A stretch of 61,871 nucleotides of DNA, filler included, from Theionarchaea archaeon (GCA_018992565.1; 4 parts of 4 records of this genome joined end to end with filler, not necessarily neighbours in it); one strand, 5' to 3'; positions 2 to 31,477 are shown, counted from the whole stretch's first letter. Program-made: numbers and translations. Notes: a model not told the origin generated them from the sequence alone.

Positions 2-172
2 CTGCAGATACATCGCCTGCTCAAGTCCATTGCTGCCAGAACAGGAGTATCTGAAGGTGACATTAACAGAATACTCAGCCTTGCCCGGGTCATGAATAAG
101 ACCTGCCTGTGCCCTCTGGGCCAGTCTGTTATAATGCCTCTGCAGTCAGGCTTGAACCTTGAGGTGGTATAG
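2..172 (+). CDS. C-terminal fragment of NuoF/HoxF-like NADH-binding flavoprotein subunit (5' end outside window)
   Basis: Manual translation from base 2: LQIHRLLKSIAARTGVSEGDINRILSLARVMNKTCLCPLGQSVIMPLQSGLNLEVV*. The C-x-LGQ motif matches the NuoF 4Fe-4S C-terminus. The stop overlaps the fdhA GTG. Confidence 0.7.
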   Translation: MQIHRLLKSIAARTGVSEGDINRILSLARVMNKTCLCPLGQSVIMPLQSGLNLEVV

Positions 173-2880
173 TGCGGGTGGAGATCACCGTCGACGGGAG
201 CCCCATGCAGCTGACCAAGGGGGAAAATCTGTTGTCTGAGCTGCGTTCTTCTGGGATTGACGTGCCTGGGCTCTGTTACTACGAAAAAGTGTCTCCTACC
301 GGGTGTTGCCGCCTGTGTTCTATCAAAGACACGAAGACTGGCAAGGTGGAGATGGCATGCACCTTAACTGTGTGTGAAGGGATGGATATTCAGGTCTTCA
401 CTTCAGAATTGGAGAGCTACCGAAAGGAGATTCTCCAGTTGATCCTTTCAGAACATGACCATGACTGCATGACCTGTGAAGCTGCTGGTGGCTGTGATCT
501 AGAGGACTTGGCATATCGATATGGCATTGATGCCTCCAGCGAAGTGTATCCCCCTTGTTACAAGGCATCGAGCGTTCATGAGACGCAGGTCCTCATGTTT
601 GATCCCAAGAAATGTATAAAGTGTTACAGATGCATAAAAGCTTGTGATGAACTCCAGGAAAAGCATGTGTTAGACATGGCTGAACGCGCCAGCTACATCA
701 TGGTCTGGCCTGGACATAACGGGATATGGAAAGAGAGCGTATGTGACGGTTGTGGTGAATGTATTCAGGCCTGTCCTGTTGGAGCCTTGTACGAAAGAGA
801 TGCAGTAAGAAAAGGGAGAACCTGGGAACTGACCAGTACAAACACGGTATGCGAATACTGCGGTGTGGGATGTTTAATTCAGGTGTACACTAAAGACAAC
901 CATGTTATTAAGGTCAAAGGCATAGATGGGCCAGCAAATAAAGGGAGATTATGTGTGAAGGGACGATTTGGGCATCAGTATCTCGAAAAAGATCGATTGA
1001 CGTCTCCTCTTATCAAGAAAAATGGCACATTTACAGAAGTCACATGGGATGAAGCTATTCAATATGTTGCTGACACATTCTCGAAGATATTGACCACACA
1101 TGGACCTCACGCACTGGGAGGACTGTCGTCAGCGCGGTGCACAAATGAAGAAAACTACCTCTTCCAGAAATTTGTGAGAGTCCTCTTCCAGAACAATAAT
1201 GTGGATCACTGTGCCCGTCTCTGCCATGCCTCTACTGTAGCAGGGTTGAGCAGAACATTCGGCTCGGGTGCAATGACCAATTCCATTGCTGAGCTCGCTG
1301 ATAGTGACTGCATCTTCGTCATAGGTTCAAATACCACGGAGACCCACCCCGTCATTGCTACCTTTATCAGAAATGCAGTCCGAAAAGGGGCTGCTCTCAT
1401 TGTAGCAGACCCTCGAACCATAGACCTGGCTTCATCTGCTCATGTCCATCTCCAGCACAAGAACGGCACTGATGTAGCACTGCTCAATGGTATAATGAAT
1501 TACATATATATACAGGGGCTACACAACCAGGATTTTATAGAAGCCCGCACAGAAGGATTTTCTGATTTCATAACCGTAGTAAAAGAGTACACCCCTGAAA
1601 GGGTGGAAGACGTTACTGGAGTTCCCACAGAGAAGATACAGGAGGCTGCCCGCCTTTTCGGTCAGGCTGAGAAAGCGTCTATTGTATTCTCCATGGGGAT
1701 AACCCAGCATACCACGGGCACTGATAATGTGGTATCCCTCGCTAATCTGGCCATGCTTACAGGGAATGTGGGCAGGCCCTCTACTGGAGTCAACCCTCTC
1801 AGGGGTCAGGGAAATGTGCAGGGAGCCTGTGACCTAGGTGCTCTATCTGCTGTATACCCCGGCTATCAACCAGTTGCAGATCCTGAAATAAGGAAGCAGT
1901 TCGAAGTTGCCTGGGGTGTTGCCCTGCCAGACACGCCGGGGCTGACTGTCGTTGAGATGATAAACAAGGCAGCACTGGGTGAAATCAAGGGGATGTATAT
2001 CATGGGGGAAAATCCCATGGTTTCAGATCCCAATGGTAACCATGTGGAGAAAGCGTTGAATAACCTAGATTTTTTAGTAGTGCAGGATATTTTCATGACA
2101 GAGACTGCTTTGATGGCAGATGTAGTGCTTCCTTCACAGGCAGCACTGGAAAAAGAGGGTACATTCACCAATACTGAGAGACGCATCCAGGCAGGAAGAA
2201 GAGTGGTGGAACCGCCTCTCAATACAAAGGCCGACTGGGAAATCATTGGGTTACTTGCAGAAAAAATGGGATACCCTATGAAATATGAAGCAGTCTGGGA
2301 CATTCTGAGAGAGATCAACCAGGTAACGCCGATCTACAGAGGAATTACCCCCAGCAGGGTTGCAGAAGGCCTTCAATGGCCATGTCCTTCTGAAGATCAT
2401 CCTGGAACGCCCTACCTGCACAGCGGAACGTTTTCCAGGGGAAGCGGGTTGTTCTCCCCTGTTGACTTCATACCACCTGCAGAGTGTCCTGATGAAGAGT
2501 ATCCCTTCGTGCTGTCAACAGGTAGAATTCTCTATCATTATCACACGGGAACAATGTCCCGGAAAGTGGAAGCATTGAACTCCTTTGTCAATGAAGGGTT
2601 TGTGGAGATTGCTCCTCAGGACGCACATACCCTCAATATAAAGCATAATGACCATGTGGAAGTTGCCACCAGAAGAGGAAAGATCATAGTAAGAGCTCAT
2701 GTCTCTGAGAGGGTAGCTCCACGGTCTGTGTTTATCCCCTTTCACTTCAGCGAGGCACCAGCCAACAGGCTCACCAATGATGCTCTGGATCCTGAAGCTA
2801 TGATTCCGGAGCTCAAGGTGTGTGCATGTGCCATCACAAAGCTGGACATGACTACATCACAGAAGGAGGGAGAAAAATGA
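172..2880 (+). CDS. fdhA: Formate dehydrogenase alpha subunit (Mo/W-bisPGD) with N-terminal NuoG-like Fe-S domains
   Basis: 2Fe-2S motif, HxxxCxxC and 2x[4Fe-4S] motifs, CEYCGVGC, active-site NNVDHCARLCH (Cys, not Sec), LRGQGNVQG. Confidence 0.93.
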   Translation: MRVEITVDGSPMQLTKGENLLSELRSSGIDVPGLCYYEKVSPTGCCRLCSIKDTKTGKVEMACTLTVCEGMDIQVFTSELESYRKEILQLILSEHDHDCMTCEAAGGCDLEDLAYRYGIDASSEVYPPCYKASSVHETQVLMFDPKKCIKCYRCIKACDELQEKHVLDMAERASYIMVWPGHNGIWKESVCDGCGECIQACPVGALYERDAVRKGRTWELTSTNTVCEYCGVGCLIQVYTKDNHVIKVKGIDGPANKGRLCVKGRFGHQYLEKDRLTSPLIKKNGTFTEVTWDEAIQYVADTFSKILTTHGPHALGGLSSARCTNEENYLFQKFVRVLFQNNNVDHCARLCHASTVAGLSRTFGSGAMTNSIAELADSDCIFVIGSNTTETHPVIATFIRNAVRKGAALIVADPRTIDLASSAHVHLQHKNGTDVALLNGIMNYIYIQGLHNQDFIEARTEGFSDFITVVKEYTPERVEDVTGVPTEKIQEAARLFGQAEKASIVFSMGITQHTTGTDNVVSLANLAMLTGNVGRPSTGVNPLRGQGNVQGACDLGALSAVYPGYQPVADPEIRKQFEVAWGVALPDTPGLTVVEMINKAALGEIKGMYIMGENPMVSDPNGNHVEKALNNLDFLVVQDIFMTETALMADVVLPSQAALEKEGTFTNTERRIQAGRRVVEPPLNTKADWEIIGLLAEKMGYPMKYEAVWDILREINQVTPIYRGITPSRVAEGLQWPCPSEDHPGTPYLHSGTFSRGSGLFSPVDFIPPAECPDEEYPFVLSTGRILYHYHTGTMSRKVEALNSFVNEGFVEIAPQDAHTLNIKHNDHVEVATRRGKIIVRAHVSERVAPRSVFIPFHFSEAPANRLTNDALDPEAMIPELKVCACAITKLDMTTSQKEGEK

Positions 2881-4838
2881 ACACAAAAAGTAAACGAGAC
2901 GCGAACCATGAAAATCCGTTAAGAATAGCATCAAAGAAAGATTTTATGGCCCTGGTGGATTCACTCATAGAAGATGGATCTCTGGAAGTCCATGGCGTAA
3001 AATCAAAAGGCACCAAATTCGTGTTTGGACTGCTGGAATCATCTGATGAATTGCGGCTGGACTATGATGTTACTGTCATACCGCCCAAGAAGTACTTCTT
3101 ACCCCAGGACGAATCCATGATGCACTTTGACACATCTCAACCCTTTTCAGTACAGGCGAATGAAGACATTCCCAAGAGAGTGATAATCGGAGTCCATCCC
3201 TATGATATCGTGGCCATAAAGCAGATGGATACGTACTATACAGATTCCTTTGTAGATGATCTGTATGTCAAGAGACGAAAGAATACCCTGCTTGTGGGAG
3301 CACATGTGGCCAGAGTTTCGGAGAAGGCATTTTTCGGTGATATGGGAACTGGTATGGTAGATTCTGGATTTGATCTCATGTTGACTGACCTCAAAGACGT
3401 AATTGCACTGGAGGTTGGTACAACTGCAGGAGCAGACCTGATATCGAGCCTGAAGACTCGAGATGCTACCCCAGAAGAAGTAGAAAAGATCAGAAAAGCA
3501 GTAGAAAAAGCTGCAGCAGAGGCCAGGAGGGGATTGAAAACACCTCCGGATCAGTGGTCTCATCTCCTGCAGGGGAACTACGACAACCCTGTGTGGAAGA
3601 CCCAGTCCGAAAAGTGTCTCTCCTGCGGAACCTGCACCAGCGTATGTCCCACCTGTTTCTGCTATGATGTCAATGACAAGATGCATCTCGACATGAAAAC
3701 TGGCAGCAGGATAAGAACATGGGATGGCTGCATGCTGCGTTCCTTTACACGTGTTGGCTCTGGTGAAATCTTCAGAGAAAAGAGAATAGACAGATACAGA
3801 CACAGGTTCTACCGCAAGGGGGAATACCTCCCTGCCAGGCTCAATTTTGTCGCATGCGTTGGCTGTGGGCGTTGTTCCACACAGTGCATTCCTGACATTG
3901 CAGATCCTGTCACACTCATCAACATGGTAACAGACAGTTCTCAGACGCTGAAACCCCCTGTACCCCATGCTGCGTCTCCTGTCACTGTTGAAGGACAGGT
4001 TCCTGACGACACAGGCCCTGGATTGTACATCCCCTGCCCTGCCACCATCAAGAGAGCAGTGCAATTGTCAGAATGGGAGAAGCTGTTCGAGCTCGAGCTG
4101 GACGATGGAAGTGCACTGGACCATGAACCTGGTCAATTTGTAGAAGTCTCTATCATGGGATATGGTGAAGCGCCCATATCTGTATCTTCAGCTCCTGGAA
4201 CCAAATCCTTCGAACTGGCTGTACGGAAGGTGGGAGATGTCACCTCGCGGCTGCATGCACTGAATCCCGGAGACAAAGTGGGTATTAGAGGTCCTTTTGG
4301 CACAGGGTTTGGTGTTGAAGAACTGAAAGGCAAGAACCTCCTGGTTATTGCGGGCGGCATTGGTATTATCCCCGCCCGTTCACTGATCAACTATGTCCTG
4401 GATCACAGGAAGGACTTTGGGGAGCTTACAATTCTATACGGGTGTAAGAAGCCCTGTGAGCTGCTATTTGGTGACGAAGTCCAAGCATGGGATAAGAGAG
4501 AAGATGTAGCCCATTTGAGATCAGTGGATTCCTGTCCTGAAGGAGAGTGTTGGGAAGGTGAGGTTGGTCTCATCACCTGTCTGATTCCTCTGGCTACCTT
4601 TGATCCAAAGAACACCATAGCCATTGTAGTGGGTCCTCCTGTCATGTACAAGTTCGTGATACGGGACCTCATGGGCAGGGGCATGCCTGAAGAGAATATC
4701 ATAGTCTCTCTGGAAAGGCGTATGAAGTGCGGTGTGGGAAAGTGCGGGCACTGCCAGATAAACGGAGTCTATGTGTGTAAGGAGGGGCCAGTGTTCAGGT
4801 ACAGCCAGATAAAGAACTCACCGGAGGCGTTCACATGA
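2877..4838 (+). CDS. Fused sulfhydrogenase (group 3b hydrogenase) beta (Fe-S) and gamma (FAD/NAD(P)) subunits
   Basis: N-half has CLSCGTCTSVCPTCFC and CVGCGRCSTQC. C-half has PGQF, RGPFG, GGIGIIP and ERRMKCGVGKCGHC. ATG at 2877 overlaps the fdhA stop (ATGA) after GGAGG. Confidence 0.88.
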   Translation: MNTKSKRDANHENPLRIASKKDFMALVDSLIEDGSLEVHGVKSKGTKFVFGLLESSDELRLDYDVTVIPPKKYFLPQDESMMHFDTSQPFSVQANEDIPKRVIIGVHPYDIVAIKQMDTYYTDSFVDDLYVKRRKNTLLVGAHVARVSEKAFFGDMGTGMVDSGFDLMLTDLKDVIALEVGTTAGADLISSLKTRDATPEEVEKIRKAVEKAAAEARRGLKTPPDQWSHLLQGNYDNPVWKTQSEKCLSCGTCTSVCPTCFCYDVNDKMHLDMKTGSRIRTWDGCMLRSFTRVGSGEIFREKRIDRYRHRFYRKGEYLPARLNFVACVGCGRCSTQCIPDIADPVTLINMVTDSSQTLKPPVPHAASPVTVEGQVPDDTGPGLYIPCPATIKRAVQLSEWEKLFELELDDGSALDHEPGQFVEVSIMGYGEAPISVSSAPGTKSFELAVRKVGDVTSRLHALNPGDKVGIRGPFGTGFGVEELKGKNLLVIAGGIGIIPARSLINYVLDHRKDFGELTILYGCKKPCELLFGDEVQAWDKREDVAHLRSVDSCPEGECWEGEVGLITCLIPLATFDPKNTIAIVVGPPVMYKFVIRDLMGRGMPEENIIVSLERRMKCGVGKCGHCQINGVYVCKEGPVFRYSQIKNSPEAFT

Positions 4839-25518: not shown

Positions 25519-25618
25519 NNNNNNNNNNNNNNNNNNNNNNNNNNNNNNNNNNNNNNNNNNNNTTAATTAATTAANNNNNNNNNNNNNNNNNNNNNNNNNN
25601 NNNNNNNNNNNNNNNNNN
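25519..25618. other. Artificial contig spacer (N-run with six-frame stop TTAATTAATTAA)
   Basis: Identical 100-nt construct occurs three times in the window. Confidence 0.97.
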
Positions 25619-26896
25619 ATACTCATTATCCCCGTGAAGAGATACTATCTGCGGTATCATCAGACTGGAGTCTGTCATCTCAGCCCAGAAGATCTCATAA
25701 TCTGTCCCATCAAACCCGTACCACACCACGTACGAGTTCCCCTCTGAATCCACAGCAATTTGAGGGTTGTAGTCATCCCAGACTTTGTTATAAGGACTGA
25801 TGGAGATTTTCAACGTAGTCTCTTGACTCCCAGAGGACGCTACTGTGGTCCAATAGATTTCGTTGTCCATTCCATCAAACCCATACCAGGTTACATACGA
25901 ATTACCCTGCAGGTCTACCGCAATGCGAGGGTCGTAGTCGTCTTTGAACAGATTATCCAGGTGGGTGGATATTTTCTCAACATCACCTGCCTGAGTATTG
26001 ACAACTGCTGCCCAGTAAATCTCCAGATCATTTCCATCAAACCCATACCACACCACGTACGAATTCCCCTCTAAATCCACAGCAATCTGCGGGTTGTAGT
26101 CATCCAGATCTCTATTATCCACATGCGTGGAGATTTTCTCCACATCCTCCTGTACCCCAGTTCTGTCTATGAAAGTCCAGTAAATCTCCAGGTCATTTCC
26201 ATCAAGCCCATACCACACCACGTACGAATTCCCCTCTAAATCCACAGCAATCTGCGGGCTGTAGTCATTCCTATTTACATTGTCCTTATGAGTGGAAATC
26301 TGTTCTACCTTACCTGGTACACCAGAGCTGTCAATTTTGATGAAATAAATGTCCTGGTCACTTCCTCCTGCCCCTTGCCAGGTTACATACGAGTTCCCCT
26401 CTGAATCCACAGCAATCTGAGGGTATCGATCCGATGGCCTTTCACCAGGTTTCTCAGCAGAAATCTCTTGCACATCTTCCAGTACTCCAGAAGGGTCAGT
26501 CCTTGCCCAGTATATGGTGGATCCATTTCTGGTGACCCCGTACCACACCACGTACGAGTTCCCCTCTGAATCCACAGCAATCTGAGGGTTGTAGTCATCG
26601 GACAGCTGATTGTCTTCATGAAGGGAGACTTCAGCCACCTTCTCAATAATCCCATCTTCAGAAACTCTTGCCCAGAAAATTCCCTGGTCGTCCCCAGAAG
26701 TCCCGGACCATACAATAAACGAATTTCCTTTCCCATCAACAGCAATGTCTGGTGATTCATTATCTTCCAGTGCATCGAATTCAGCAGATACTTTTACGGC
26801 AGAAAAAGGTGATTTAACTGGTGCGGCTGCTAGAAGCAAGAGAACAGTTAAAGTGAGGGTATTTATTTTTCTTATTTTCTGTTCCCCTTTGAACAT
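25619..26896 (-). CDS. Secreted beta-propeller (SBBP-like) repeat protein, truncated at contig end
   Basis: Signal peptide; at least 7 repeats of ~56 aa with P(Q)IAVDxxGNSYV(V/T)W. Confidence 0.85.
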
Positions 26897-27462
26897 ACCT
26901 TGATTTTTGCTTTCAGAATTTATAAAGTTTCTTGTGGCGAGCCTCTTTCAATTTGTGGTATTACTGCATATATGGTCTTTATGAGGTGTTCTTTTTGGTG
27001 ACAACCTGCATTCTGTGCAGGAAGATTCTTTTTCTGCGAAATTACATACGTTCCATGACGAATATCATTCTCAAGAGGCTCTGGAAGTCATCAAGCCTCA
27101 TTTGGCCAGAATAGTCACAAGGCCAGAATATCTTCTTTCGTGTCTTTCATCTCTGTTGAATGACAGGTTCACTTTTGCTAACCTGCTTTCACGTTCAAGG
27201 CCAGGACTCTCCTTGAATCTCTCGCAGCTGCGAACATACTCAAAGCTCAAGAGAGGTCTTCACTTGATCAAGCAGATGAGACTACAAACAGAGAAAAAAA
27301 GTGCATTTTGTTCCTAGAAAGGCAAATAAAGTATGTTAGTGCTAATTGAATTACAGTAACTACACAGTCCGGAGGTAGGTGCCAGTTCACAAGGTGATTG
27401 AGATCCGAGTTTTCCAAATTCCTCCTGACTTGTGAAGATGAAAAGTGTAGGGAGGTGCAGAT

Positions 27463-27621
27463 GTGATAGCCAGACTGATAGAACCGGGAAACATAGATGA
27501 TGCTGTAATACTTGGCAACTGCATAGTCATCGGAGCAAATCCCAAAAATGGGGAATGTCAGGGTCTTGGATGGGATCCGAGTAGCGGGTGCAATCTTGGT
27601 GGTCTTCCGTTCGAACACTGA
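27463..27621 (+). CDS. Putative RiPP precursor peptide A (52 aa; absent from the ORF track)
   Basis: GGAGGTG RBS then GTG: MIARLIEPGNIDDAVILGNCIVIGANPKNGECQGLGWDPSSGCNLGGLPFEH*; clear paralog of 31140..31304. Confidence 0.85.
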   Translation: MIARLIEPGNIDDAVILGNCIVIGANPKNGECQGLGWDPSSGCNLGGLPFEH

Positions 27622-27764
27622 ATATGATCGAGCGCGTTTCCTATTGAGTATCTTACATAGTCTTGAGAAGCTGTCGAGCCGTGGTGGTTTCACATAGGGT
27701 GGGGCCATTGTCAGTAAGACATTGCGCTCGACAGTCTGAAAGAGCAGAATTCGGAGGTGAAATC

Positions 27765-27932
27765 ATGCTTGCAGAGCTAGTAGAACCAGGAATATCAATA
27801 TCTGGGTCAAGTCCAGACTGGTGGGTTTGTATCATTGGTGGAACCCCGACTAAAGAGCAGGATTGTGTACCTTATGGTAAATTCCCTGCAGGAATAGGAG
27901 ATTGCGGCATTGGCGGAACTCCGGGGTCCTGA
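27765..27932 (+). CDS. Putative RiPP precursor peptide B (55 aa)
   Basis: GGAGGTGA RBS then ATG: MLAELVEPGISISGSSPDWWVCIIGGTPTKEQDCVPYGKFPAGIGDCGIGGTPGS*. Confidence 0.85.
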   Translation: MLAELVEPGISISGSSPDWWVCIIGGTPTKEQDCVPYGKFPAGIGDCGIGGTPGS

Positions 27933-27985
27933 GCCATTGGATCATCCTCAGATGATTCGCCTGGCTAAGCAATCGGGGTAGAGCA

Positions 27986-28007
27986 TTTTCCTCTTTTTTT
28001 CTTTTTT
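27986..28007 (+). terminator. T-rich terminator-like tract after the precursor pair
   Basis: TTTTCCTCTTTTTTTCTTTTTT. Confidence 0.5.
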
Positions 28008-28324
28008 GGTATGAGTATTTGAGCACTGATACAGCTGTGAGGGATTGACTTCCGTAAAGGGGGATGCTGTGAATAGAATAGAAAACACACCATGAGAGCA
28101 TTGATAACGTGTATTATCAGTCTGGTCGACCTGCGCACAATGATGTATCTTGAAGGACCAGCTCCCGTGCCTCCAGTTGAGATGTGGCCTGTTCTTGATA
28201 ATGATTGTTTAGATGACTTCTCTTTTCCAGATATAAAATAAATTACACTTTTTTTCTCAATAATACATATAAAATGTCCGATGCATCATATAATCATAAT
28301 AAAGACACACTGTTCTACTTGTCA

Positions 28325-28360
28325 TTCCAGTGAAATCTCCCTCGAAGTTCATCACTGGAA
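28325..28360. promoter_or_regulatory. Perfect 9-bp inverted repeat upstream of radical SAM 1
   Basis: TTCCAGTGA-N18-TCACTGGAA. Confidence 0.4.
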
Positions 28361-28397
28361 AACGAAAGCAGTCCAAATGAGATAGAGGAGTGGTACC

Positions 28398-29726
28398 ATG
28401 AAAGAATCAAGATACAATATTTATCTTCTGGACGAAAAGGAGAAGAAAGGGCTCATATATAACTCAATGCAGAGATCAATAGTACACATAGACGATGAGG
28501 TATACAATCTGATGAGGAGCGGGCGAATTGAGGAGATAAGTGACGACGTTACAGACGTCCTAAAACAAGGAAGGGCACTCATTGATGAAAACCAGGACGA
28601 GCTACAGATTCTGAAGATCATGTTCAATAGGGCAAAATTCAGTGCACTTTCAACAGGGTTCACTATTATACCGACTCATTTGTGCAACCTGGCGTGCACG
28701 TATTGCTATCAAGGGCATGGCGATGTAATGGGGAAAACAATGAGCACTGAAACTGCAAGACGGGCAGTTGAGTTTATTAAGAAAAATGCAGTGGGACGGA
28801 AATCTCTGGGAATAAATTTCTACGGCGGAGAGCCCCTCCTGTTCCCAGACATACCTTTTGGAATACTCGAACAGATAAAGCAATTTACCGATGAAAATGG
28901 AATATACCTCTCAACGTCGTTCACATCAAACGGAACCCTTTTTACAGAAGAGATAGTCAAGAATCTTAAGGATTTTGAGCATGAAGTACAGATCACTTTT
29001 TGTGGATCACGAGAAGTCCACGATGCTGTACGAGTTGATAAGAAGGGCAATGGCACATACGAGAGACTCATGGACGTCATCTCGCTCTTCAGGGACAACG
29101 ATATACGGTTCCATATTCGCGTTGATATTGATCAAGAAAACTATCATACCATATCATCGCTGCTTGAGGATTTGAGCCAGCGAGGATTTGGGGGACTCTA
29201 CATAGGATTCTGTCCCATAGGCAAAGACATCTGCTACACTGAAATGGAACGTGACAGCGGGAGAATAGACTTGGTTTCTTTGACTCGATTGTTCAAGGTA
29301 GCTCATGACATGGGATTCAGGACAAATCCAATCTACATTCAGAATTTCATCGAGGGGTGCGCTGCAATAAAAGATGCATTCCTGGCTATAGACCCTGATG
29401 GTGACGTCTACAAATGCATTGCTGCACCCAATTACAAAGAACATAGATTTGGCACTCTCGATGAGTCTGGCAATCTCAGCAATGTCAATTATGACGCTTT
29501 TTGTTCATGGACGCTGAGGGATCCTCTTCTCATTGAAGAGTGCGTCCAGTGCAAATTCGCCCCTATATGTGCAGGCGGGTGTGCTCTCAGTGCCTACAGC
29601 AAGCACGGTTCAATAATGTCGCCTGGATGTGATGAGAAGGATCTGGGAGAGATAATGAGGACGTATATCATGTTGAAACATCCAGAGTTGTTCGAGGGGT
29701 GTAGTTATGAAAGTATCGTACTATAA
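28398..29726 (+). CDS. Radical SAM/SPASM peptide maturase 1 with probable N-terminal RRE
   Basis: CNLACTYC, FYGGEPLL, SPASM (GC...IDPDGDVYKC...CVQCKFAPICAGGC...C); ~80-aa N-terminal extension SRYN..LIYNS. Confidence 0.9.
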   Translation: MKESRYNIYLLDEKEKKGLIYNSMQRSIVHIDDEVYNLMRSGRIEEISDDVTDVLKQGRALIDENQDELQILKIMFNRAKFSALSTGFTIIPTHLCNLACTYCYQGHGDVMGKTMSTETARRAVEFIKKNAVGRKSLGINFYGGEPLLFPDIPFGILEQIKQFTDENGIYLSTSFTSNGTLFTEEIVKNLKDFEHEVQITFCGSREVHDAVRVDKKGNGTYERLMDVISLFRDNDIRFHIRVDIDQENYHTISSLLEDLSQRGFGGLYIGFCPIGKDICYTEMERDSGRIDLVSLTRLFKVAHDMGFRTNPIYIQNFIEGCAAIKDAFLAIDPDGDVYKCIAAPNYKEHRFGTLDESGNLSNVNYDAFCSWTLRDPLLIEECVQCKFAPICAGGCALSAYSKHGSIMSPGCDEKDLGEIMRTYIMLKHPELFEGCSYESIVL

Positions 29727-31044
29727 TGTCATGTTCCCTTATGATGATAGCTACATACTCTTCAATACACTGAGAGGAGCTGTGTTCGTGGTGGATTCAG
29801 AGACCAGGGAAGTCTTGATGGAAGGAAAGTTGTCTGCCCTTGGCGAGGAGCTCACGGATTTGTTCACGACTCATGGAATTATCGTCAAGAATGAAGTAAA
29901 TGAGTGTGATGAGTACAGATTGATGTACGAGAAATCCAAGTACGCCACCAATTCAACAACGCTACACATTATCACCACATACAGCTGCAACCTTGCATGC
30001 ACATACTGCTACGAAGGAAAGGGAGAAATAGAGCAGAAAAGCATGGACACTAAGGAGGCTGAGCGTGCAATTCACTTCGTAGAGAACCTGACAGAAAGCA
30101 ACAATAGCAGCTCACTGGGGATCGAGCTTTTTGGTGGAGAGCCCTTTTTGAATATGCCCATAAATACTATGGTGGCCAGAGAGCTCGAAAAATGGTGTGA
30201 AGAGACTAGCAGAAATTTCTCAATTAACGCTGTGACTAATGGCACCTTGTCTACCCAGGAGACTGTGGAAGAGCTTGCGCAGTATAAATGTAGCTTCCTG
30301 GTGACTGTTGATGGCACGAAAGAAATCCATGATCAAAGAAGAAGGTACAAGGATGGGAGGGGCACATTTGACGATATCATGGACGGGTTGTGGCGAGTAA
30401 GAGATTCGGGTCTGCATATCATGGTTCGAATCAATGTAGACGAATATAACAAAGAGTATATCGTGCCCCTGTTCGATTTTCTGAAGGAAGGAGGTCTCGA
30501 AGACACTTTGATTTCCATAAAACCCGTGTTTAACAGCTCGCCTGCCTGCCTGTCCTATGGCTATTGTCTGCCAGACACGGAAGAATTGAGAACAATCAAC
30601 GATCTTTGTCACTGCGCCAGAGAAAGAGCCTTCAAGACAGAAGAACCTGAAAAAGTCCTTCCTCAGGGCCCATGTAGTGCACAGCGATCTTCGTATTTCA
30701 CCATAGATCCTTATCTGAGGTTGTTCAAATGTGCAATTCTGCCCCCTTATGAGGAGAACTCTGCTGGTTTGGTGGATCTGGAAAGCTCCCGACCATTGCT
30801 CAATAGCGTGCATACTGACTTCATGCTGCGGAATCCTATGGAGATAGAGCCATGTAAGACATGCGAATATGTGCCCATCTGCCGAGGGGGATGTCCGGTG
30901 GAAATATACCAGACTCAAGGAACTGCTCGTGGATATATTTGCAGAAAGCCTGAATTTCAGGAGGTTATTCAACAGAAGCTTCTGAATATTGTAAAAAAGC
31001 ATTCTAGTTGTGACCATGCACTCGCGAATGGAGAGAGGAGGTGA
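29707..31044 (+). CDS. Radical SAM/SPASM peptide maturase 2 with probable N-terminal RRE
   Basis: CNLACTYC, FGGEPFL, SPASM (PC...FKC...CKTCEYVPICRGGCP...C); SYYN..LFNT N-terminus; overlaps gene 1 by 20 nt. Confidence 0.9.
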   Translation: MKVSYYNVMFPYDDSYILFNTLRGAVFVVDSETREVLMEGKLSALGEELTDLFTTHGIIVKNEVNECDEYRLMYEKSKYATNSTTLHIITTYSCNLACTYCYEGKGEIEQKSMDTKEAERAIHFVENLTESNNSSSLGIELFGGEPFLNMPINTMVARELEKWCEETSRNFSINAVTNGTLSTQETVEELAQYKCSFLVTVDGTKEIHDQRRRYKDGRGTFDDIMDGLWRVRDSGLHIMVRINVDEYNKEYIVPLFDFLKEGGLEDTLISIKPVFNSSPACLSYGYCLPDTEELRTINDLCHCARERAFKTEEPEKVLPQGPCSAQRSSYFTIDPYLRLFKCAILPPYEENSAGLVDLESSRPLLNSVHTDFMLRNPMEIEPCKTCEYVPICRGGCPVEIYQTQGTARGYICRKPEFQEVIQQKLLNIVKKHSSCDHALANGERR

Positions 31045-31139
31045 AAAAAAGGCGACAGATCGCTCGATGGAGAGTATCTATTCCTAGCATATTCAATAAA
31101 GGTTTTTCCAGAGACAAAAAAAGTCCAGGAGGTGTAAAT

Positions 31140-31304
31140 GTGATGGCCAAATTGATAGAATCGGGAAACACAGATGATGCCGTAATACTTGGAGAATGCG
31201 TCTTAGGTGGCGAACCTCTCAACGGAGATTGTGTTATTTACGGTTCCAAGCCTCATCTTACATATTGTATTTGGGGTGGTCTTCCACAATACAAACCTTG
31301 GTAA
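31140..31304 (+). CDS. Putative RiPP precursor peptide C (54 aa from GTG; alternative ATG at 31143)
   Basis: GGAGGTG RBS: MMAKLIESGNTDDAVILGECVLGGEPLNGDCVIYGSKPHLTYCIWGGLPQYKPW*. Confidence 0.85.
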   Translation: MMAKLIESGNTDDAVILGECVLGGEPLNGDCVIYGSKPHLTYCIWGGLPQYKPW

Positions 31305-31360
31305 CGAACCATGCACTTCTGAGAAACTGTCAAGGCTTGGAGGCTTGTTATGTACTTGCG

Positions 31361-31477
31361 TGCTACATCATCGGTGAAACCTCCCGTAAGGAGCAGAACT
31401 ACGGCAAATCTCCTACAGGGGTGTGAGATTGTGGTAGTGGTGGAGCTCCGGGTCTTGGATGTTGGTACATGTCTTAG
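31361..31477 (+). pseudogene. Decayed copy of precursor B core
   Basis: CYIIGETSRKEQN---YGKSPTGV*DCGSGGAPG aligns with VCIIGGTPTKEQDCVPYGKFPAGIGDCGIGGTPG; no leader, 9-nt deletion, in-frame TGA. Confidence 0.7.

Follow-up and report, generated by a model that had tools for sequence, protein, structure and literature searches.

A candidate RiPP locus with three putative precursor peptides and paired radical SAM/SPASM enzymes in an uncultured Theionarchaea archaeon

A locus of an uncultured sediment archaeon (Theionarchaea) carries genes for three peptides of 52-55 aa, A, B and C, which flank a pair of radical SAM (rSAM)/SPASM enzymes, rSAM1 and rSAM2. We consider it likely that this is a multi-precursor RiPP locus, in which three small thioether rings are predicted to form in each peptide by way of leader-RRE docking. 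As far as computation reaches, the multi-precursor interpretation, first proposed in a sequence-only reading of this DNA, is supported by the peptide family, by an RRE-like fold in the enzymes and by a co-fold; the computed results are the genes and the family to which the peptides belong, the architecture of the enzymes, the docking predicted between leader and RRE, and the RNA contigs that cover peptide A. A, B and C would be ribosomal precursors whose conserved N-terminal leader docks as a β-strand on the enzymes' RRE-like domain, with a core of about 33 aa, comprising three C-x2-3-G-x2-P units 11-12 residues apart, threaded into the active site. rSAM1 and rSAM2, which would be translationally coupled and co-evolving, would both act through 5'-deoxyadenosyl radicals, linking the sulfur of every Cys to a carbon of the unit in which that Cys lies, and the product would carry three small tandem thioether rings, each lowering the mass by 2 Da. 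That the peptides are modified at all, that the bond is a thioether, where the acceptor carbon lies and how the enzymes divide the labour is what we infer.

The window, meaning the whole 61,871-nucleotide stretch of DNA analysed, joins contigs C104 (1-25518) and C105; the locus belongs to C105, roughly 1.8 kb from that contig's start, and all its features are on the plus strand. The genes for peptide A (27463..27621; 52 aa, GTG start) and peptide B (27765..27932; 55 aa, ATG start), each recognized as an ORF with an RBS, precede those for rSAM1 (28398..29726; 442 aa) and rSAM2 (29707..31044; 445 aa), and the gene for peptide C (31140..31304; 54 aa, GTG start) follows them. A T-rich run read from the sequence 3' of B (27986..28007) is probably an archaeal terminator that splits the A-B unit from the enzyme operon; comparable T-runs lie 3' of paralogous peptides on C52, C1, C97 and C106. 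The flanking genes are housekeeping genes, and neither a leader peptidase nor a dedicated exporter was found within the window.

All three peptides begin M-x-A-x-L-[IV]-E-[PS]-G and contain exactly three Cys residues 11-13 aa apart (A 20/32/43, B 22/34/47, C 20/31/43), each within a C-x3-G-x1-2-P unit, just as the sequence-only reading had described them. In peptide A, for example, the leader is MIARLIEPG and the core consists of three such units. The strong GGAGGTG RBS described earlier is present five bases 5' of the start codons of A, B and C, and it occurs 5-6 nt upstream of the start in all seven family copies of this genome. The earlier view that the ORF track had given B and C wrong starts also held, since 90 of 90 aligned family members begin at M-x-A; the longer ORF starts at 27663 (TTG) for B and 31041 (GTG) for C were rejected. 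With its GTG start, C reads M-M-A-K-L-I, with M1 and A3 in register with the rest of the family.

A profile built from A, B and C alone and run against a six-frame translation of the 2.8-Mb genome gave self-scores of E 5.6e-31 to 4.4e-23 (1.1e-27 for peptide A), with remnant D (E 0.006, one TGA) and the C52 paralogue (E 0.10) as the next best. Remnant D (31361..31477), located 3' of C, is a decayed B-like core without a leader, a fourth copy absent from the first description of the locus. In a DNA alignment with B, 9 nt are deleted and the second Cys is lost with them; D also has an in-frame TGA.

We then compared the peptides with a much larger sequence set, as the sequence-only reading had suggested. 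A family profile made from nine peptides was searched against 1.84 billion representatives at E <= 1e-3 and identified 109 proteins, 97 of them of 90 aa or less. An alignment of 90 members shows no variation at M1, at A3 or in two C..G..P units, and at least 90% conservation of the third C and G; the positions between the conserved residues vary widely. The leader consensus is M-[FYHL]-A-x-L-[IV]-x-x-G, followed by a core of about 33 aa; 244 of 297 family Cys residues fall in C-x2-3-G-x2-P, and the Cys-Cys distance is 11-12 in 150 of 207 cases. These 90 members thus have the layout of RiPP precursors: short genes in which a conserved leader precedes a variable core. No Pfam or NCBIfam model matched any family member at cut-off, nor did the curated rSAM-target families proposed for comparison, and A, B and C had no NCBIfam match at E <= 1. 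Peptide B is present in the database as a 55-aa protein (P0004). Judged by their sequences, the peptides are a real conserved family that is described in no database.

These data bear on whether the small ORFs are genes at all, rather than chance frames or the antisense of a 146-aa minus-strand ORF (27268-27708). Peptide A was indeed missing from the first-stage ORF track, as had been claimed, and the longer antisense ORF overlaps it. However, B and C have no comparable antisense ORF, the same RBS at the same 5-6 nt spacing precedes 7 of 7 paralogues, the 109 homologues share invariant columns, the family dN/dS is 0.27-0.55 (below 1), and two members already have database entries as hypothetical Theionarchaea proteins. 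Metatranscriptome contigs (27446-27651 and 27638-27791) also span the whole of gene A with zero differing bases, in an RNA run that is stored as contigs and for which DNA carry-over may account for the coverage of A. The idea that these ORFs are not genes is practically refuted by the homologues, RBS, dN/dS, RNA contigs and deposited members, and we give it next to no weight.

The enzyme genes bear out the earlier description of two overlapping paralogous rSAM/SPASM genes between 28398 and 31044: they are on the same strand, overlap by 20 nt, and encode proteins 27% identical over 429 aa (E 3e-66). Matches to PF04055 (68.1 and 65.7 bits for rSAM1 and rSAM2; cut-off 29.5) place both in the Radical SAM superfamily. 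Since the Pfam Radical_SAM match begins at residue 88-90 in both, each carries an N-terminal extension of about 85 aa, close to the 80 aa first estimated. Both have the CX3CX2C cluster motif, with C96/C100/C103 of rSAM1 invariant among 47 aligned homologues and C94/C98/C101 of rSAM2 at least 90% conserved among 50. The invariant SPASM Cys residues are 321, 340, 382, 385, 391, 395 and 411 in rSAM1 and 323, 342, 383, 386, 392, 396 and 412 in rSAM2. PF13186 scored 20.1 bits on rSAM1, below its cut-off of 21.5, and did not match rSAM2; the seven-Cys motif and a full-length fold like those of CteB and anSME assign both to the SPASM subfamily. Full-length matches of the two enzymes are to the RiPP maturases CefB, TIGR04463, Clo7bot, geopeptide and PapB.

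AF2 models of rSAM1 (pLDDT 92.3) and rSAM2 (pLDDT 90.6) have CteB as the closest solved structure and top full-length match, residues 4-80 included (rSAM1: Z 28.4, rmsd 3.4, 383 aligned, model 4..429; rSAM2: Z 27.9-28.4, model 4..432). At the N-termini, where an RRE fold had been proposed, three strands (7-12, 17-22 and 27-32 in rSAM1; 7-12, 15-20 and 25-29 in rSAM2) and three helices (33-40, 49-57 and 68-80; 31-39, 46-55 and 66-78) are predicted. This RRE-like domain (about residues 1-80 in rSAM1) superposes on CteB from residue 4, and both models superpose on TigE from residue 1; anSME, which has no RRE, aligns to both only from residue 82-84. The models thus predict that rSAM1 and rSAM2 are RRE-bearing RiPP maturases with a PqqD-like N-terminal domain. 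Co-folding of leader and RRE, another suggested check, placed the leader of peptide A on an RRE strand of rSAM2 and passed its controls: ipSAE was 0.79 in three of three runs, compared to 0.05 for the best control, and peptide residues 3-9 paired with strand 24-29. The runs shared at least 50% of contacts, with a partner pLDDT of 45-47. The mark applied had been calibrated without user-supplied alignments such as the partner alignment used here, which has peptide A as its first sequence; in that calibration 116 of 157 solved complexes reached it, compared to 2 of 215 mismatched pairs. Resemblance to the solved complexes CteB-CteA and SuiB-SuiA may account for the pass.

We also examined how closely the peptides and maturases are associated. 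In this genome five of seven peptides have an rSAM/SPASM gene no more than 1.5 kb away: A, B and C adjoin rSAM1/rSAM2, the C52 peptide is upstream of a paralogous enzyme pair, and the C97 peptide is upstream of genes for a methyltransferase, DUF3795, PqqD, an rSAM/SPASM enzyme and a B12-rSAM C-methyltransferase. The remaining two, on C1 and C106, have no rSAM gene in their contig neighbourhood. In genome G033 none of seven peptide genes, on six contigs of 4.9-20 kb, is beside a maturase, and the sole rSAM-like ORF on these contigs scores 98 bits and is 6.8 kb away; across the two genomes 5 of 14 peptides are maturase-adjacent. Among four related genomes, the peptides and the rSAM1-then-rSAM2 subtype both occur in G000 and G033 and neither occurs in G032 or G031, and the rSAM1/rSAM2 pair is a co-evolving module in Theionarchaea. 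The sequence-only reading had held that pairs elsewhere lacking such peptides would count against it; the co-occurrence in G000 and G033 favours the proposal, but the orthologous pair on C62 of G033 has no flanking peptide. Because of G033, its C62 pair and the C97 locus, the link appears to be one of family to family, partly in trans, rather than a strict cassette, and we infer that scattered family members would be served in trans. The same leader family adjoins a different maturase set on C97.

This genome has 30 CefB-like rSAM/SPASM ORFs above 240 bits, and 65 with E <= 1e-20, so adjacency by chance has to be reckoned with. The peptides might accordingly be unmodified Cys/Gly/Pro-rich small proteins, for example metal- or redox-binding ones, beside enzymes that act on a different substrate, and it is consistent with this that 9 of the 14 peptides lack an adjoining maturase and that G032 has a twin pair and no peptide. 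However, the G032 pair is of the other subtype, with the gene order reversed and an in-frame TGA in its rSAM2-like gene, and three independent loci in one genome pair the family with RiPP machinery, in one case including a stand-alone PqqD. A rough P for three of five independent loci being adjacent, given 30 such genes in 2.8 Mb, is about 1e-3. In the co-fold, whose controls were clean, the conserved leader sits on the RRE; a conserved N-terminus joined to a hypervariable scaffolded core is how a precursor is laid out, unlike a folded metal-binding protein; and in some metagenomic proteins a PqqD domain is fused to about 25 of the same family repeats. We therefore regard unmodified proteins as improbable.

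A somewhat stronger alternative, though still an unlikely one, accepts the peptides as RiPP precursors and holds that the chemistry is not, or not only, thioether formation, with one or both enzymes perhaps making C-C cross-links, cyclopropyl groups or epimerised residues; in that case the invariant Cys residues could be AuxI-cluster ligands or later disulfide or metal sites. TigE, the fourth structural match and aligned from residue 1, is reportedly a cyclopropylglycine synthase that works on repeat motifs. The enzymes here also score 62-81 bits on cyclophane-forming and epimerase rSAM families, two non-identical enzymes suggest two different reactions, and at the C97 locus a B12-rSAM C-methyltransferase accompanies a peptide of this precursor family. 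Against this, Cys is the sole invariant reactive residue of each repeat, the repeats have no conserved aromatic or aliphatic residue, and the best-scoring characterised relatives, TIGR04463/CrpC, PapB, the SCIFF maturase and QhpD, all make Cys thioethers (available text of PMC13692751). For the preferred thioether product, enzyme similarity favours ranthisynthases, whose thioethers go to a non-alpha carbon (PapB 146-154, SCIFF 93-118 bits), over sactisynthases, which link the Cys sulfur to an alpha-carbon and whose models score low (RumMC 62-65, GggB 62 bits). The in-ring residues are hypervariable and only Gly and Pro are invariant, therefore no side-chain acceptor is conserved; since Gly has no side chain, enzyme similarity and conserved residues disagree on the acceptor.

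Among known systems, CefB (NF038107) is the best-scoring family for both enzymes, with profile positions 1-416 and 1-434 of 444 matched, the N-terminal domain included. However, scores of 274.1 (rSAM1) and 306.6 (rSAM2) are below its cut-off of 600 bits, and CefB-named proteins, which in Firmicutes are about 33% identical to the enzymes here, form a clade separate from those of rSAM1 and rSAM2 in the tree. The CefB partner has a Cys every fifth residue, compared to every 11-12 here. A CefA-type precursor was rejected on the Cys spacing of 11-13 and on the lack of any match of NF038108 (listed as 'RiPP_NF038108'), which we take to be CefA, to the family peptides of this genome; no paper containing 'Cys-every-fifth' was found.

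The SynChlorMet cassette, with its ScmA precursor, PqqD-like ScmD and twin rSAM/SPASM enzymes ScmE/ScmF, shares the twin enzymes. Among weak matches to the family, ScmA (TIGR04252) alone of the precursor models turns up repeatedly, on core residues (2 of 87 members at E <= 0.05, 3 of 90 at E <= 1), with best scores of 16.1 bits on family members and 14.7 on the C52 peptide against a cut-off of 35, and the leader is unmatched. The C97 PqqD scores 38.8 bits on ScmD (cut-off 100) and rSAM2 70 on ScmE (cut-off 400). On these sequence matches the likeness is a lead, not membership.

PapB makes tandem C-x3-D rings in freyrasin, and the ring topology predicted here would, by analogy, resemble these. 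However, scores on PapB (NF047865; rSAM1 154.3, rSAM2 146.3 bits) and on the SCIFF maturase are below the cut-offs of 340 and 425, and, unlike PapB/freyrasin and CteB/SCIFF, the peptides have no conserved Asp, Glu or Thr acceptor. Two paralogous rSAM/SPASM enzymes beside paralogous precursors are found for thuricin CD (TrnC/D). As described in the available text of PMC8188230, ruminococcin C likewise combines two paralogous rSAM/SPASM enzymes (RumMC1/2) with several precursors (RumC1-5). Both systems are bacterial, with precursors unrelated to those here, and the RumMC cut-off is 720 bits.

The second-best family, TIGR04463 (rSAM1 211.5, rSAM2 175.7 bits; below the cut-off of 525), includes CrpC of Methanococcus voltae. 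According to the available text of PMC13692751, CrpC is, like the enzymes here, an archaeal protein with RRE, rSAM and seven-Cys SPASM domains; it installs thioethers in repeats of a Cys motif, each to an acceptor a few positions further downstream, and its RRE is predicted to recognize the substrate by the extreme N-terminal end. That substrate, CrpA, is a 28.8-kDa protein with ten copies of a 17-residue motif and C-X-X-Q/D units, whereas the substrates here would be 52-55-aa peptides with C-x2-3-G-x2-P units, and Crp has a single enzyme where this locus has a co-evolving pair. rSAM/SPASM RiPPs are a known kind, and the candidate precursor family of this locus is a new one.

As the sequence-only reading had described, the locus contains two overlapping, paralogous radical SAM/SPASM (rSAM/SPASM) genes, rSAM1 (28398-29726) and rSAM2 (29707-31044). 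The overlap measures 20 nt, and the two proteins have 27% identity end to end (E 3e-66). Also borne out was its account of the three small ORFs around them. Peptides A (27463-27621), B (27765-27932) and C (31140-31304) all have a strong ribosome-binding site, GGAGGTG, five bases 5' of the start codon, all begin with M-x-A-x-L-[IV]-E-[PS]-G, and each carries three Cys spaced 11-13 residues apart, every Cys lying within a C-x3-G-x1-2-P unit. A fourth, decayed copy (D, 31361-31477) can be aligned as DNA with the core of B; its leader is absent, its second Cys has been lost through a 9-nt deletion, and it contains one in-frame TGA. An ORF between B and rSAM1 (28092-28241) had no family match and is not conserved at the related locus on contig C52. 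Taken as a whole, the locus is probably a multi-precursor RiPP system. The source is a metagenome-assembled genome of 2.80 Mb in 154 contigs (88% complete), in which positions 1-25518 of the window correspond to contig C104 and the locus lies on C105, approximately 1.8 kb from the contig start. No leader peptidase or exporter was found within the window. An MFS transporter gene that is convergent with the end of the C52 twin pair (L042, C52:1114-2286, + strand) is a possible exporter, and its counterpart is absent from the window. Upstream of A, the window encodes a divergent secreted lipoprotein with SBBP/PDIAV-type beta-propeller repeats (25571-26896, - strand). Another secreted repeat protein is found in the sister species G033 (L007:8751-10115, - strand), with two family peptides of two Cys each directly downstream. 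Comparison of these two proteins gave no significant similarity (BLASTP E 0.23), and the presence of repeat proteins beside the peptides in both genomes may be coincidence.

We searched for further peptides in 34 species genomes of the organism's order and 133 of its phylum. A profile built only from A, B and C recovered these three from six-frame segments of their own genome at E values of 5.6e-31 to 4.4e-23; the next matches were at E 0.006 (copy D) and E 0.10. The genome contains four further full copies, at C52:5213-5365 (-), C1:897-1046 (-), C97:464-628 (+) and C106:3618-3779 (+). GGAGGTG precedes the start codon by 5-6 nt in 7/7 full members, and B and each of the four copies on other contigs are followed by a T-rich run. 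G033 has seven members spread over six contigs, and zero members were found at E <= 0.1 in a 91%-complete genome of the same genus (G032) or in two others (G031 and G005). Only 2 of the 133 genomes of the phylum have the family. When a nine-sequence profile was compared with 1.84 billion representative proteins, 109 matched at E <= 1e-3, which establishes a conserved family; 97 of them are no longer than 90 aa, and these short matches mostly align from the first residue or near it. Grouped at 50% identity, the peptides make up about 100 clusters. Among 90 aligned members, M1, A3 and two C-G-P sets do not vary and conservation of the third C and G is at least 90%, with the remaining core positions widely variable. 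Three Cys are present in 55 of these 90 members, 244 of 297 Cys lie within C-x2-3-G-x2-P, and the Cys-Cys spacing is 11 or 12 in 150 of 207 cases. Among paralogues and orthologues dN/dS was 0.27-0.55.

The earlier suggestion that the peptides lie outside described families was upheld, since none of the 90 members reached any Pfam or NCBIfam cut-off. The sole recurring weak match at E <= 1 was ScmA (TIGR04252), in three of the 90 and at about 16 bits, below its cut-off of 35. The profile of A, B and C found nothing in a protein database beyond the window's own proteins, and two family members have been deposited as 'hypothetical protein [Theionarchaea archaeon]'. Look-alikes in a protein atlas all scored below 0.9; among them are Apre_1838 and CLI_3235, families of putative sactipeptide bacteriocins, as a lead only. 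NF038106 was rejected as an unrelated family. Three longer metagenomic proteins (P0128, P0131 and P0136; 435-514 aa) combine an N-terminal PqqD-like domain, with Pfam scores of 23.6 and 23.9 bits for two of them, with many tandem C-x2-3-G-x2-P units (about 25 by eye; the family profile aligned to 8-12 stretches per protein). Each looks like a recognition domain fused to its own poly-substrate.

DNA nearly identical to the locus occurs in 19 public runs from seven studies of marine, estuarine, mangrove and soil/sediment samples, nine of these runs perhaps being the source of the assembly. In one metatranscriptome, two assembled contigs, which convey no strand, ends or expression level, cover positions 27446-27791 with zero differing bases, that is, all of A and the start of B. 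The contigs of this run (X20) cover only 3 of 30 bins, and the absence of enzyme-gene cover is therefore uninformative. The public runs show strain variation. Assembly bubbles lie just upstream of A (27330-27460) and in the gap between A and B (27672-27752). Peptide C has a synonymous variant at 31223 and a Leu-to-Phe variant at 31257, and no variants were seen within A or B among these runs.

The placement of precursors beside maturases, noted at this locus by the sequence-only reading, holds for only part of the family. In the genome of the window, five of the seven peptides (A, B, C and those on C52 and C97) lie within 1.5 kb of an rSAM/SPASM gene. The C52 peptide is upstream of a paralogous twin pair. 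The C97 peptide stands upstream of a maturase set unlike the twin pair (L039, C97:464-6082), in which the genes downstream of the peptide (464-628) encode a SAM methyltransferase, a DUF3795 protein (L039:1691-2056; Pfam, 59 bits), a stand-alone PqqD (PF05402, 76 bits), a more distant rSAM/SPASM protein and a B12-rSAM 'RiPP maturation C-methyltransferase' (TIGR03975, 148 bits). By a rough estimate, based on the 30 G000 ORFs of this type that score above 240 bits, adjacency at three of five independent loci would arise by chance with P ~1e-3. In G033, however, none of the seven peptides is beside an rSAM/SPASM gene, the only rSAM-like ORF around them being a generic one (98 bits) that lies 6.8 kb away from the peptides on C8, and the twin pair on G033:C62 is not flanked by a family peptide. 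Many members must therefore be served in trans, if at all. A small Cys-rich ORF beside the G033:C174 peptide (L069, ~4195-4437, - strand) resembles the C97 DUF3795 protein by appearance. The host genome has a very large expansion of CefB-like rSAM/SPASM genes, with 30 ORFs above 240 bits and 65 at E <= 1e-20 against the family HMM. These genes are often paired or arrayed (for example at C13:34-50 kb, C30:25-33 kb, C128, C154, C29 and this genome's own C62), and most have no family peptide nearby.

Both enzymes gave full-length matches to RiPP maturase families of NCBIfam. The CefB family scored best (274 and 307 bits for rSAM1 and rSAM2, respectively, below the cut-off of 600), with TIGR04463, the CrpC family, second (211 and 176 bits, below the cut-off of 525), followed by Clo7bot, geopeptide and PapB (PapB 154 and 146 bits); sactisynthase models scored low, at about 62-65 bits. 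Homologue alignments (47 sequences for rSAM1, 50 for rSAM2) retain CX3CX2C together with the seven cysteines of the SPASM motif. In AlphaFold2 models (pLDDT 92.3 for rSAM1 and 90.6 for rSAM2), the closest solved structure to both enzymes is the thioether synthase CteB, which matches over the whole length (rSAM1, Z 28.4, rmsd 3.4 Å over 383 aligned residues, model 4..429; rSAM2, Z 27.9-28.4, model 4..432). The structure of TigE aligns from residue 1, whereas that of anSME, which is free of an RRE, aligns only from residue 82-84. The N-terminal extension of about 80 aa is thus predicted to be an RRE-like domain of three strands and three helices in both rSAM1 and rSAM2, in keeping with what had been proposed, and the profiles of the two enzymes align across this domain with a probability of 100%.

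We also examined the predicted docking of the leader. Co-folding of rSAM2 with peptide A, from alignments of 50 and 90 rows, respectively, scored 0.79 in all three runs against 0.05 for the best control. This passes a mark that 116 of 157 solved complexes attained, as did 2 of 215 mismatched pairs. At least 50% of contacts agree between runs, and the pLDDT of peptide A was only 45-47. Confident contacts involve residues 1-19 of the peptide, with residues 3-9 modelled on the RRE strand 24-29 of rSAM2 beside helices 44-57 and 69-80; the docked residues coincide exactly with the conserved positions of the family. This result may stem in part from the existence of solved complexes of CteB-CteA and SuiB-SuiA. 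The models support a putative binding of the leader by the RRE of rSAM2.

The enzyme pair is a conserved, co-evolving module. Each type has about 60 homologue clusters, with identities of 50-74% for rSAM1 and 40-65% for rSAM2 before a sharp fall to 34% or less, and all named close homologues are from Theionarchaea or Methanofastidiosia. A quick maximum-likelihood tree (IQ-TREE) of 42 rSAM/SPASM proteins placed five rSAM1-type and ten rSAM2-type rows in two clades, each with support of 100 and both with an identical inner split. One subtype has the order rSAM1 then rSAM2 (C105, C52 and G033:C62) and the other the reverse (C64 and G032:C33). The peptide family is confined to the two genomes having the former, a co-occurrence that fits, among only four related and non-independent genomes. 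Longest-contig size, a proxy too weak to rely on, was common to the two enzymes' match lists in 14 cases, which suggests that their homologues share contigs; by the same weak proxy 1 of 20 peptides shared a size (4678) with an rSAM match. Beside the reverse-order pairs (C64 and G032:C33), a search for conserved small ORFs matched only antisense enzyme frames. The rSAM2-type gene of the G032 pair (L010, G032:C33:779-2074) contains one in-frame TGA, which could mark a pseudogene, stem from an error in sequencing or encode selenocysteine.

In the maturation that we propose, the leader would dock onto the RRE, the core would thread into the enzyme barrel, and each Cys would bond to a carbon of the C-x2-3-G-x2-P unit in which it lies, giving three tandem rings per peptide at -2 Da each. 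A thioether is proposed because Cys is the sole invariant reactive residue and because the best-characterized relatives, CrpC, PapB, CteB and QhpD, all form Cys thioethers; by enzyme similarity the bond type leans towards ranthionine. In PapB the acceptor is an Asp at i+4. The only invariant ring residues of the present family are Gly, at i+3 or i+4, and Pro. [quoted passage not shown] The two enzymes could catalyse a different reaction each, serve separate sets of sites, or form an obligate pair. An ambitious joint reading, which we think improbable, would make the hypervariable peptides a Theionarchaea-specific M-F-A-x-L-I library with at least two maturase sets, rings on invariant residues and an obligate enzyme pair. 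Its leader would be shared by the twin SPASM pair and the C97 set of PqqD, SPASM and B12-rSAM methylase, and its rings would be either sactionines from Cys to the Gly alpha-carbon, an option drawn from the Gly at i+3 or i+4, or Cys-Pro thioethers. To our knowledge, neither is an established cross-link. If true, this reading would mean combinatorial RiPP biosynthesis in archaea.

Finally, the locus offers a tractable test case, with three short substrates, two enzymes, a nine-residue recognition element and a predicted docking mode, and about 100 natural core variants could be used for mapping substrate tolerance. It could show why many SPASM maturases come paired and whether an invariant Gly or Pro accepts a thioether. 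The roughly 30 CefB-like maturases of the host point to Theionarchaea as an exceptionally rich, untapped reservoir of peptide chemistry in anoxic sediments. The searched literature contained nothing on 'Cys-every-fifth', nothing about such a system for Theionarchaea with RiPP or radical SAM, and for SynChlorMet/ScmA only unrelated uses of 'scMA'. The general scheme, in which an RRE-bearing rSAM/SPASM enzyme modifies a Cys peptide, is already known. Pfam, NCBIfam and the searched literature do not describe the precursor family or its motif, the co-evolving twin module or the archaeal host. Archaeal radical-SAM RiPPs have been predicted in bulk and hardly characterized, with 'ranthipeptide' and 'sactipeptide' clusters listed by genome mining without characterization (PMC12144867). 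CrpC, the only archaeal SPASM thioether enzyme that we found in print, is predicted to recognize the extreme N-terminus of its substrate, a protein (PMC13692751).
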